64,000 nt of DNA from positions 3,456,001 through 3,520,000 of the forward strand of contig OZ241875.1 in assembly GCA_965203325.1 (NCBI GenBank), given 5' to 3'. Source of the stretch: a bacterium (lineage in GTDB: Bacteria; UBA8248). The notes beneath the pieces are model-generated. The model had not been told where the DNA came from, ran no database searches, and saw only the letters and a program-made list of their open reading frames with translations. Below, in pieces: positions 5,626-62,650 of this stretch. Numbering within the stretch: position 1 is the first letter of the stretch; each line of letters starts with the position of its first letter. The position numbers were made by a program, and so were the translations under genes.

Positions 5626-6375
5626 TCACTTTTTCTTTATCTCCATCAGATTGATTTTGTCGAAATCCACTACGGAGATTCTTTCGCCGGTCGCCTCTTC
5701 GTCGCCGGGCCGGTATATCCCGAATTTGAAATGCGGCTCTCCGCATGACTCAACAGCAAAATCTCCCTCGTCCACGAGTTTTTCCTCATTGAAATACAGG
5801 CTGTAATACGATTCCGTTAAATAAACCTCCAGCTTTACGTCTATCCATTTCCCGATGAATTCACTGATGTGTACCTTCCTCGTAAAACGCTCGTTCCAGA
5901 TTTTGCTTATCAGGCGGCCGTTCGAGAATTTGAACATCAACGGAGGGCCGACCCTGCAACCTGCGACAGATTGGTGCATCTGAAAAAAATCTTCTCTTTC
6001 GTAGGTAAATCCCTTCACGAACCGAACCCTGAAGGTGAGCGTATAGTCCGTATCTTTTTTCAAAGAGGCAGTCTGTTTTATTTCCGCCCGCTCCCAGTAT
6101 GGCGCGCCGTGCCTGGCCCCGGCATCGGTGCCGCATCCTCCCACCTGTTTGTTTTTGAGGGTGAATCGCAAGAACGTCTCTTTTCCCTCCGTTACCCATC
6201 TTGCGGAAGAGGATTCCGGGAGACCGCAGTTGTCGTAAAACTCGACGTTCCAGTCTTTGTCACGGTAGGTTGTACTGCCGGCCGTGTCGAAATACCAGGC
6301 GGATGAAATCCCGTCTGATGAAGTTTTACATCCCGCCAAAAAGACGATAATAATCAGGAGCAGGAATTTGCGCAT
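5626..6375 (-). CDS. Lipoprotein, polysaccharide lyase / heparin lyase I-like
   Basis: Lipobox LAGC; ERAE, FFQMH and HFKFGIYR resemble beta-jelly-roll polysaccharide lyase motifs; more AT-rich than its neighbours. Confidence 0.6.
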   Translation of the reverse strand: MRKFLLLIIIVFLAGCKTSSDGISSAWYFDTAGSTTYRDKDWNVEFYDNCGLPESSSARWVTEGKETFLRFTLKNKQVGGCGTDAGARHGAPYWERAEIKQTASLKKDTDYTLTFRVRFVKGFTYEREDFFQMHQSVAGCRVGPPLMFKFSNGRLISKIWNERFTRKVHISEFIGKWIDVKLEVYLTESYYSLYFNEEKLVDEGDFAVESCGEPHFKFGIYRPGDEEATGERISVVDFDKINLMEIKKK

Positions 6376-41409: not shown

Positions 41410-41649
41410 GGGGCTGTTGAAAAAGGCCACATTTCAGGGGTAGAGGAGAAGCTCCTCTCGGATAGAAAGCCACCCCCCCCTACCCCCCCCTTGTCAGGGG
41501 GGTATAAAAAGGCGATGCGCTCCCGCCGGGTTGAGGGGGTTTTGCTTTTTCTTGCCTCCCTGACAAGGGGGGGTAGGGGGGGGTGGTTTATGGGGTTTCC
41601 CTTTCAAGGGGGTTGCTATTACCCTCTCAGGGGCTTTTTCAACAATCTC
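41410..41649. mobile_element. MITE-like element carrying a C/G-run palindrome
   Basis: Ends GGGCTGTTGAAAAAG and CTTTTTCAACAATCT; CCGTAG direct repeat at 41405-41410 and 41649-41654; internal inverted pair CCCCCCTACCCCCCCCTTGTCAGGG / CCCTGACAAGGGGGGGTAGGGGGG. Confidence 0.65.
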
Positions 41650-60372: not shown

Positions 60373-60723
60373 ATGCCCAGGACAGTGGATTGGTACTACC
60401 ATCGCTCCGGCTGAAAGACCTGCGCCAAAACGCAAGCGTTTCTTGCGGAAAATGGAATCGAGGTATCCGAGCAGGCCAGTTCCAGAAAAGACGTGGTGGA
60501 TGAGAACAACGTCGATTCGGTTCTGGACGGCGTGACGGACGTCTATTCGACCAGGAGCAGGAAGGTGATTCACCTGGATATCAAAAAAGCGAACCCTGCG
60601 CGCGAAGACGTGCTAGCCCTTTTGATGGGGCGCTCGGGCACGCTCAGGGCGCCGGTCATCAAACATCGCAGCGCCCTCATCGTCGGCTTCGACGCGGAAA
60701 CATATACAAAGGTTTTGACGTAA
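60373..60723 (+). CDS. ArsC-related thioredoxin-fold selenoprotein (UxxC), in-frame TGA at 60412-60414
   Basis: RBS GAGGAG; reads MPRTVDWYYHRSG-U-KTC, in frame with ORF 60493-60723 (GTLRAPV, IVGFD); SECIS-like hairpin at 60431-60447. Confidence 0.88.
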
Positions 60724-60739: not shown

Positions 60740-62194
60740 TCAGAGGGCCAACTGGCCCTCGGTGGGCTCCGCTCAGCAGAACCACGATTCGGTCAAACGG
60801 GGCGGGCGGATTCGGTCGGGCGCGAAGGCGGCCTTTGGCCGCGACTGATCGGGGCGTTCGAGAACCTCGGCCGCCAATTCGCGAATCCTCGCAAAAGTCA
60901 CGGCGGCGTCCTCCTGGCGAGTGGCAGCATCCTCCACGAGGGTGAGCGCCTCCTGGTGCAGCTTGTCCATCCTCTCATCCGGATGCTCCCAGCGGTAGAT
61001 GAAATTCTCGGCGTCGAGTTCGGTGATGTATCTCTTCATGTGGGGAGAGTCGAGTAAATGGGAACCCGGCGGCACCAGTACCCGGATGGCCATCTGTATG
61101 GGGTCGACCTCGTCGATCAAGGCGTATTCTTCAATGAAATCAAGCAAGTCGAAATAATCCTGCGCGCTCGTCCACGGCGTGAATGCGACCAGCGACGGCC
61201 GGATGGAAACGCGCGCCTTCCGGGCGGCTTTCACGACGCGGAAGACGTCCTCCCGGTTGTGCCCTTTCACCAGATGGCCAAGGACGAGGTCGCTTAAAGA
61301 TTCCACCGCGGTAATGATAAACGCGCATCCGTTATCTCTAAACTCAGGCAGAAGCTCCTCGTGCTTGATGAGGTGCTCCACCTTGGCCGTGAAGTCGAAG
61401 GTGAGAGCCGGAAACCGCTCGTGCAGGGCTCGGACGACCCGAAGCGCATGAGCGGGGCCGTTCAGGAAATCCGGGTCCGCAAAGGTGATGTGGCGCGCGC
61501 CTTGCGCCGCCAGGTCTTCGATGTCTTCCAGAACTTTGTCCTGCGGCACGACGAAGAAACGGCCCTCATAAACCGGCGGAATGGGGCAATGGAGGCACAA
61601 GTGCTTGCAGCCGCGGCTCGCCTCGACGGCGCCCGCAGGGTAGTGTTGCCCCTCCTTCACGAGATGGGCGTATGCCTGAAGCGCGGGCAATCCTTCCCGG
61701 TCGGGCTTGAGCAGGGGGATTTTTTTGAGATACGGGCCGGATGTTCGTTCTCTCGTGGCCGCCCCGGCTACTTCGATGTTCCCGGAGGCTTGGGACAGTT
61801 CTTGAACGAGCCTCACGAGCGGCAGCTCGAACTCACCACCGATCGCCGAATCCCCGCCGTTTTCAAGAAGATAGCCCTTGTTGAGCAGGCCGTAGAGGCC
61901 ATAGAAACAGATGTGGCACCCCGGGTTCGCCTCGCGTACTTTCGCCGCGACTTCCACGCCGAGTCTGAGCGCGGTGTGCATCGGTACACTGATGCCGACG
62001 AATTTCGCGTTTTCGATTTTTTGTGGGGAGAAATCTTCCGCCGCGATGTCCATCGCCCAGGGACGGAAGCCCGCTTCGCGCAAAAAAGCCAGAGGCGAGG
62101 CGACGGCCAGGGGCTGGTGACCCAACTCGTAGCAGGAGACGAGGACGACGGCGCCGGGCGCTCGCCAATCCGAAGCCTTGTCGTTAGAGTTCAC
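60740..62194 (-). CDS. CUAEP-tail radical SAM selenoprotein, in-frame TGA at 60773-60775
   Basis: CxxxCxxC (GCKHLCLHC), B12-binding-like N-terminal domain; readthrough gives ESWFC-U-AEPTEGQLAL*; hairpin at 60743-60760; start approximate (GTG 62194). Confidence 0.9.
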
Positions 62195-62216: not shown

Positions 62217-62248
62217 AAAAAAAGCCCCGGGCGCGTGATGCCCGGGGC
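62217..62248 (-). terminator. Rho-independent terminator after the IscA/ErpA gene
   Basis: Minus strand GCCCCGGGC...GCCCGGGGC followed by T7. Confidence 0.8.
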
Positions 62249-62266: not shown

Positions 62267-62650
62267 TCACGTAGTGAACGATTTTCCGCAGCCGCACATG
62301 CCCATGGCGTTGGGGTTGTTGATCTTGAAGCCCGAGCCCTGGAGGCTGTCGATGAAGTCGATTTCCGTGCCCGCGATGACGGGATAACTCTGGGGGTCCA
62401 CGAACACGTCGAAGCTTTCGGCGGAGAACACTTTATCCTCGGGGTTGGCGGATTCCTCAAAATATAGGCCGTAGTTGTAACCCGAGCAGCCGCCGGCGGT
62501 GACGGCCAGCCTGAGGCCGTGGCCACTCTTGCCTTCCGCCTCGAGAATCTCGCTCACCTTCTTGTTGGCGAGCGGCGTAACTGTAATGCCTTCAAGGGCT
62601 TGGGGTTTCTTTTGGGATTGATCGAACAGCGTGACCGTTCCATCCGACAT
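62267..62650 (-). CDS. A-type Fe-S carrier (IscA/ErpA/HesB family)
   Basis: GGCSG, GFKINNPNA, CGCGKSF. Confidence 0.95.
   Translation of the reverse strand: MSDGTVTLFDQSQKKPQALEGITVTPLANKKVSEILEAEGKSGHGLRLAVTAGGCSGYNYGLYFEESANPEDKVFSAESFDVFVDPQSYPVIAGTEIDFIDSLQGSGFKINNPNAMGMCGCGKSFTT

Follow-up and report, generated by a model that had tools for sequence, protein, structure and literature searches.

A predicted cysteine-selenocysteine tail in a widespread family of radical SAM enzymes and its possible ArsL-like role

The 64,000-nucleotide stretch of DNA analyzed here (the window; positions 3,456,001 to 3,520,000 of contig OZ241875.1, assembly GCA_965203325.1, from a bacterium of the GTDB lineage UBA8248) carries on its minus strand a gene for a radical S-adenosylmethionine (SAM) enzyme, the C-terminus of which appears to extend beyond an in-frame TGA. 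Judging from sequence comparison, it is almost certain that this gene is intact, that it encodes a member of the NCBIfam family NF040546, "CUAEP/CCAEP-tail radical SAM (seleno)protein", and that its first UGA would be decoded as selenocysteine (Sec) via SelB and tRNA-Sec, guided by a downstream hairpin. As for the function of the resulting vicinal Cys-Sec pair, we favor, with a probability of about 0.4, the possibility that the enzyme works like its sister family ArsL and that its tail serves to offer a soft-atom substrate, or an intermediate, to a carbon species derived from SAM.

In window coordinates, the gene runs on the minus strand from a GTG start at 62194 to 60740 and encodes 484 residues plus the stop, with Sec as residue 474. 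The first in-frame TGA (60775-60773, minus strand) directly follows the codon for Cys473, while the second (60742-60740, minus strand) is taken as the real stop because close relatives carry TAA or TAG at this position. The 3' end reads TGG TTC TGC TGA GCG GAG CCC ACC GAG GGC CAG TTG GCC CTC TGA, that is, WFC-U-AEPTEGQLAL-stop, which confirms the reading past the first TGA that had been made in an initial annotation of this DNA; the plain list of open reading frames ends the radical SAM frame at that TGA. With the TGA read as Sec, the C-terminus becomes PPRLTESWF-C-U-AEPTEGQLAL, and the GTG start is consistent with the 473-residue gene calls of close homologues, which stop at the TGA. The protein matches NF040546 at 663.9 bits (cut-off 500), with residues 16-483 aligned on profile positions 1-467 of 468, so that the tail is included in the match, and a six-frame search of the genome recovered a match at 657.3 bits. 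Assignment to this family, as initially annotated, is correct; it is not new, since NF040546 is already catalogued. The Pfam domain PF04055 (Radical_SAM) is matched at 51.1 bits over residues 191-330 and contains the CxxxCxxC motif for the radical SAM [4Fe-4S] cluster (C196, C200 and C203; 61586..61609, minus strand), which is shared with ArsL. These three cysteines are invariant in an alignment of 77 sequences, in which C21 and C96 of the N-terminal domain are conserved at 90% or more.

Evidence for recoding comes from comparison of the tails in 110 related loci, of which 30, counting the window's own, belong to the window's phylum and 80 were taken from named public genomes. Of these loci, 105 extend to the tail, where 85 show a TGA and 20 a Cys codon; the contigs of the remaining five end before it. 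A first pass with a regular expression had scored 80 TGA, 19 Cys and 11 misses, and inspection resolved the misses into four TGA, one TGA-TGA (locus L077), one Cys and five contig ends. In all 105 tail-reaching loci, the TGA or Cys codon is followed in frame by AEP (or SEP, TEP, VEP) and then by [TSLNR]xxQ. Alignment of homologue C-termini, which were expected to read CCAEP or CUAEP, thus recovered the conserved AEP, and no tail-reaching locus ended at WFC without it. Of the 120 best-matching database proteins listed, 92 terminate at W[FY]C and 26 read on as CC[AS]EP; the other two are fragments. Two variants were seen beside the common form. In L077, a Planctomycetota-labelled contig, the region at about 5970-6010 reads TETWF-TGA-TGA-AEPTEGQ, which could be a Sec-Sec variant or a base error. 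A sister subgroup that is about 43-46% identical (L049 of genome G005; proteins P0124 and P0126) ends in IPYL[ENT]EPWYC, and the DNA of L049 reads on as TGA-AEPTEEQFALS, so that the CUAEP tail reaches beyond the group ending in PPRLTExWFC.

The bacterial Sec insertion sequence (SECIS) element is a hairpin located shortly after the UGA, with a G early in its loop. A hairpin of this type, GAGGGCC-AGUU-GGCCCUC, with a 7-bp stem and the loop AGUU (60760-60743, minus strand), starts 12 nt after the UGA, as the initial annotation had also reported; it overlaps the E-G-Q-L-A-L codons and abuts the stop. The 76-nt stretch was predicted to fold at -27 kcal/mol as compared to -19.1 ± 3.0 for 200 shuffled versions (z -2.65), one of which was as good. 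In 73 of 74 distinct Sec-form tails, a CAGUU loop was enclosed by 5 or more consecutive base pairs, 11-14 nt downstream of the UGA (mean stem 6.2 bp), as opposed to 2 of 19 Cys-form tails (mean 2.7 bp), with shuffles averaging 2.5 bp. Many compensatory stems occur among the loci (GGGCC/GGCCC, GGGUC/GACCC, GGGACC/GGUCCC, GAGCC/GGCUC and GAAGG/CCUUC), and in the register with a 5-nt loop, 37 cells changed on both sides as compared to 16.1 ± 2.7 in shuffles (0 of 500 reaching this number). In the 4-nt-loop register, covariation was no better than in shuffles; the existence of the hairpin in two loop lengths muddies any count made in a fixed register.

The window's genome encodes the Sec machinery in full, with selB (392.8 bits), selA (571.4), selD (333.2) and tRNA-Sec (75.9) all found above their cut-offs, and selA and selB are adjacent genes. 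The initial annotation had regarded the lack of such machinery as fatal to recoding, and the genome proved to have it. The selD gene, located outside the window at C1:1726679-1727641 (minus strand), contains one in-frame TGA itself, suggesting that selenophosphate synthetase is also a selenoprotein in this organism. The view that the TGA of the radical SAM gene is a true stop, with the protein ending at WFC and the downstream conservation reflecting a terminator or regulatory hairpin, fits the end point of ordinary gene calls and the location of the hairpin at the 3' end of the gene, but it has next to no chance of being right given that protein-level conservation (AEPTxxQ) extends over the 11 codons behind the TGA and is the same in the 20 loci and 26 database proteins with Cys, that the curated NF040546 profile matches through the tail, that the hairpin is absent from most Cys forms and is not followed by a T run, and that the Sec machinery is complete.

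With regard to function, the second-best family match is to ArsL (NF040542; 314.5 bits, with profile positions 2-415 of 423 aligned), and the annotated arsL of a Pseudomonas amygdali plasmid is found by tblastn at 34% identity (E 2e-66; 34-35% overall). The similarity spans the N-terminal domain and the radical SAM core, and ArsL likewise has no cobalamin domain signature over the cut-off. On C473-U474 aligns the vicinal CC of ArsL, the tail of which (R-C-C-L-K-C) holds three As(III)-binding cysteines, whereas the CUAEP tail (C-U-A-E-P-T-x-G-Q) offers two ligands. According to two preprints, SAM cleavage by ArsL yields methylthioadenosine along with a 3-amino-3-carboxypropyl (ACP) radical or Fe-C species, and As(III) binds to the three cysteines of the tail, which is required for product formation but neither for SAM cleavage nor for iron-sulfur (Fe-S) content (bioRxiv 10.1101/2024.02.01.577332; 10.64898/2026.04.29.721666). 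The initial annotation had envisaged the Cys-Sec pair as a redox or metal-binding arm by analogy with other selenoenzymes; the idea of an arm seems reasonable, but its best support would come from the sister family ArsL and not from these enzymes. The rare Cys-Sec dipeptide is also shared by selenoproteins of unrelated folds, namely HgcA variants, the MerB-like SaoL and MerT variants, and Haft and Gwadz read it as a heavy-atom ligand (bioRxiv 10.1101/2022.07.06.499078). No mercury or organometal genes were found near the radical SAM gene in the window or among the recurring neighbors of the related loci.

An AlphaFold2 model built from the 77 sequences reached a mean predicted local distance difference test (pLDDT) score of 93.1 and a predicted template modeling (TM) score of 0.91. 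The tail had been described as flexible, which the model does not bear out for the segment directly before the pair: PPRLTE is modeled at a pLDDT of about 92, as compared to about 69 for the C473-U474 pair and 49 for the last five residues. The best structural matches were AprD4 (6fd2; E 2e-18, TM 0.64), followed by OxsB, TsrM, MgmA and MiaB, and a sequence search of solved structures returned nothing closer than E 1e-5. These enzymes and RimO share with the model a two-domain layout with a Rossmann-like N-terminal domain, but they are only 12-19% identical to it and none has a Cys-Sec tail. The N-terminal domain is B12-binding-like, but its match to PF02310 (20 bits) falls below the cut-off of 32.1 and sets the protein apart from cobalamin-dependent radical SAM enzymes, which carry a B12-binding domain; AprD4, the best fold match, is a cobalamin-free member itself.

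Directly upstream of the radical SAM gene, on the same strand, lies a gene for an A-type Fe-S carrier (62267..62650, minus strand), IscA/ErpA-like and ending in CGCGKSF (PF01521, 67 bits; TIGR00049, 119 bits). The 73-nt gap between the two genes is kept in most same-genus loci, and an A-type carrier is found upstream on the same strand, 49-161 nt away, in all 37 loci in which the enzyme is at least 60% identical. Within 3 kb of the 73 more distant loci, we found an Fe-S carrier in 27 (26 Nfu-type, one A-type), an ATP-grasp ligase of the L-amino-acid-ligase type in 31 and a DUF169 gene in 16; when the count is restricted to the 41 of these loci that are flanked by 3 kb or more on each side, the numbers are 22, 22 and 11, and 15 have neither carrier nor ligase. 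Whereas the present locus lies beside an A-type carrier and a selenoprotein of the ArsC fold, members in other phyla lie beside Nfu, an ATP-grasp ligase and DUF169. In the window's own genome, an orthologue of the ligase, 47% identical to a Nitrospira-labelled one, is located about 520 kb away at C1:2997906-2999156, where it adjoins an NfuA-type gene and a short-chain dehydrogenase; DUF169 is found at a location separate from both the radical SAM gene and the ligase. Among solved structures, the ligase comes closest to the L-amino acid ligase BL00235 (E 3e-45) and next to BacD; BL00235 prefers methionine-like N-terminal substrates.

The enzyme and the ligase are co-inherited. In a class sampled with 151 genomes, each of 90% completeness or more, both were present in 40 and neither in 109, with the enzyme alone in one (G066) and the ligase alone in one (G168, where it sits at a contig start). 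In the 40 genomes with both, the genes are no more than about 1.2 kb apart in 27, on the same contig at 4-73 kb in three and on different contigs in 10, so the pattern holds also where they are unlinked. In the window's phylum (51 genomes), 46 have both, three have the enzyme only (G011, G020 and G040; 67%, 79% and 95% complete), two have neither (G008, 99%; G009, 92%) and none has the ligase only. One family of this phylum has a second ligase paralogue about 40 nt from the enzyme gene, and in an order represented by 10 genomes, a close ligase match was found only in the sole genome with the enzyme. Three database proteins of 860-877 residues (P0125, P0127 and P0128) combine radical SAM and ATP-grasp parts, but we did not count them as clean Rosetta-stone fusions, because the linker, compared by eye, matches a +1-frame reading of the conserved tail DNA and hence points to a frame change. 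This change before the tail could reflect an assembly error, a real fusion that has lost the tail or something else. An L-amino-acid-ligase-like ATP-grasp gene (23% identical over 373 residues, E 2e-21) was also seen at two loci with the RCCLKC tail, on a Priestia plasmid (L133:2629-3852) and a Bacillus cereus plasmid (L140:1438-2661), embedded among ArsR, aquaporin, GNAT and ars genes in an arrangement that parallels the CUAEP cassette.

The NF040546 family is large, with more than 8000 clusters at 90% identity. Carriers include metagenome-assembled genomes labelled Nitrospinae, Tectomicrobia, Planctomycetota, Acidobacteriota, Methylomirabilota/Rokubacteria, Nitrospirota, Poribacteria and Gemmatimonadota, as well as the cultured Thermomicrobium roseum DSM 5159, which encodes a member of 50.7% identity with WFC-TGA-AEP on its megaplasmid. 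The annotated end of the T. roseum protein (L131:7980-9500) is WFC, beyond which the DNA reads TGA-AEPLED, and a 6-bp hairpin lies 17 nt past the TGA; the neighbors of this gene are an aminotransferase and a major facilitator superfamily transporter, with no ligase or carrier among them, and no selB was found in a search that covered the megaplasmid record only. Within the window's phylum, 49 of the 51 genomes match NF040546, 48 of them over the cut-off and always as a single copy; a single TGA lies inside the match in 47 of these 48, the exception being G040, whose contig ends before the tail.

Based on the analogy to ArsL, we propose that the CxxxCxxC-bound [4Fe-4S] cluster would reductively cleave SAM, possibly at the C-gamma-S bond to yield a 3-amino-3-carboxypropyl species, and that the conserved C-terminal tail may bring a second substrate or intermediate into the active site on the vicinal Cys-Sec pair, much as As(III) is carried by the CCxxC tail of ArsL. 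Given that the tail offers just two chalcogen ligands and that arsenic genes are missing from the neighborhood, As(III) itself is unlikely to be the bound atom, which may instead be another soft center such as selenium, sulfur in the form of a persulfide, an organo-metalloid or a metal. The product would probably be an amino acid, which the co-occurring ATP-grasp enzyme of the L-amino-acid-ligase type could join to another amino acid, and the adjacent Fe-S carrier, A-type here and Nfu-type in other phyla, may supply or rebuild the cluster.

Several points weigh against this proposal. The match to ArsL stays below the cut-off of that family (450 bits), and the CUAEP tail has no third cysteine, exceeds the ArsL tail in both length and order and is preceded by about 50 residues without a counterpart in ArsL. 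Neither the window neighbors nor the recurring neighbors of the 110 loci include arsM, arsQ, arsN, arsR or efflux genes, whereas arsenic genes surround the plasmid arsL of P. amygdali. The convergent neighbor of the "ArsC family" described below is a Spx/YffB-like thioredoxin-fold protein that is not kept outside the lineage. The near-universal, single-copy occurrence of the gene throughout the window's phylum is more in keeping with a housekeeping role than with a specialized natural product, and the co-occurrence counts overstate independence because the sampled genomes are kin. Furthermore, the mode of SAM cleavage of an NF040546 enzyme is not readable from its sequence. A literature search, which did not extend to the supplements of preprints, found neither a paper on the function of the family nor an experiment on any member. 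The initial annotation was right in assuming that no reaction has been established: the only paper found to use the motif name lists NF040546 as uncharacterized and the CU motif as rare (Haft and Gwadz, bioRxiv 10.1101/2022.07.06.499078).

A different function of the pair, which we find conceivable though improbable, is that of a redox shuttle, in which a selenenylsulfide would pass electrons or a hydrogen atom to the active site and be re-reduced by an external thiol or selenol oxidoreductase. A vicinal Cys-Sec pair near the C-terminus has the classic layout of a redox arm, as in thioredoxin reductase with its C-terminal GCUG or class I ribonucleotide reductase with its C-terminal cysteines, and Sec and Cys interchange at this site (85 versus 20 loci) as they do at many redox sites. 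Moreover, a candidate partner is encoded tail-to-tail with the radical SAM gene in this lineage, namely a thioredoxin-fold selenoprotein of the UxxC type. Its gene (60373..60723, plus strand; 116 residues) has a UGA at codon 14 (60412-60414) in the motif U-K-T-C, matches NF041106, "ArsC family (seleno)protein", over its full length across the TGA (118.6 bits, cut-off 85), shows a 6-bp hairpin about 16 nt after the UGA and ends 16 nt from the radical SAM stop; the list of open reading frames contains only a 76-residue piece of it. This ArsC/Spx-fold selenoprotein was, however, rejected as an obligatory partner, being adjacent in only 29 of the 110 loci and absent, at the cut-off used, from all five distant genomes that carry the radical SAM gene. 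It is a lineage-specific neighbor, and there is thus no conserved dedicated reductant. The shuttle is also at odds with the homologous ArsL, in which the tail binds the substrate and is dispensable for SAM cleavage, and with the TGA-TGA of L077, where a diselenide would make a poor shuttle.

Quite unlikely, in our view, is a third possibility, that C473 and U474 together with C21 and C96 of the N-terminal domain ligate an auxiliary metal site or Fe-S cluster that is consumed or remodeled during turnover. Such consumption would explain the tie to Fe-S carrier genes, for which NfuA and LipA offer a precedent. The high conservation of C21 and C96 is in line with this, as is the fact that no neighbors are shared more widely than the Fe-S carriers, which belong to two unrelated types, and MiaB and RimO, which hold an auxiliary cluster in their N-terminal domain, are among the structural matches. 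On the other hand, just four candidate ligands are available, spread over two domains, Sec is rare as an Fe-S ligand, and C21 is not kept in the sole ArsL sequence that was aligned. Removal of the tail from ArsL left its iron and sulfide content unchanged, according to the same preprints.

The remaining features of the window may bear on expression of the gene or lie further from it. A strong terminator-like hairpin with nine G-C pairs and a T run (62224..62248, minus strand; identified by a consensus scan and in the sequence) separates the Fe-S carrier gene from the radical SAM gene and is located about 29 nt before the GTG start, and no sigma-70-like site was found between it and the radical SAM gene, so that the gene may be expressed by read-through. 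No link was seen to the other neighbors in the window (MarR, luciferase-like, cyclase and ClpB-like). A 95-nt "tRNA-Cys (aca)" reported by ARAGORN at 41434-41528 was considered as a Sec-like tRNA and discarded, as Rfam finds no tRNA there and the segment is an arm pair of a repeated palindrome. This palindromic element of about 120 bp (41434-41589, both strands) has arms rich in C or G runs, and one 33-nt arm occurs in 79 copies in one orientation and 93 in the other in the 4.39-Mb genome when up to four errors are allowed. The copies are usually paired about 90-120 nt apart and resemble a family of repetitive extragenic palindromic (REP) or miniature inverted-repeat transposable element (MITE)-like repeats.

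Ordinary gene calls truncate the protein at Cys473, as is the case for the 92 of 120 listed homologues mentioned above, and thereby lose the residue most likely to matter. This concerns a large family that is core in some phyla and whose sole studied relative uses an ACP radical or Fe-C species to form a C-As bond. Because the enzyme is tightly co-inherited with the ligase and linked to Fe-S carriers, its reaction is open to direct testing, for which there are natural Cys forms and at least one cultured carrier, T. roseum. As a tentative extension, toward which we are more doubtful than hopeful, the CUAEP enzyme, the ATP-grasp ligase and dedicated Fe-S carriers might constitute a widespread two-step pathway that belongs to the core of several phyla whose environmental bacteria are mostly aerobic (among them lineages labelled Nitrospinota/Tectomicrobia, Nitrospirota, Acidobacteriota, Planctomycetota, Methylomirabilota and Gemmatimonadota). 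In this pathway, ArsL-type 3-amino-3-carboxypropyl transfer to a non-arsenic soft atom held on the Cys-Sec pair would give a so far undescribed amino acid resembling methionine or homocysteine, from which a dipeptide would then be made. If so, a thiol or selenol of low molecular weight that is new, or an organo-chalcogen metabolite, could be among its products.

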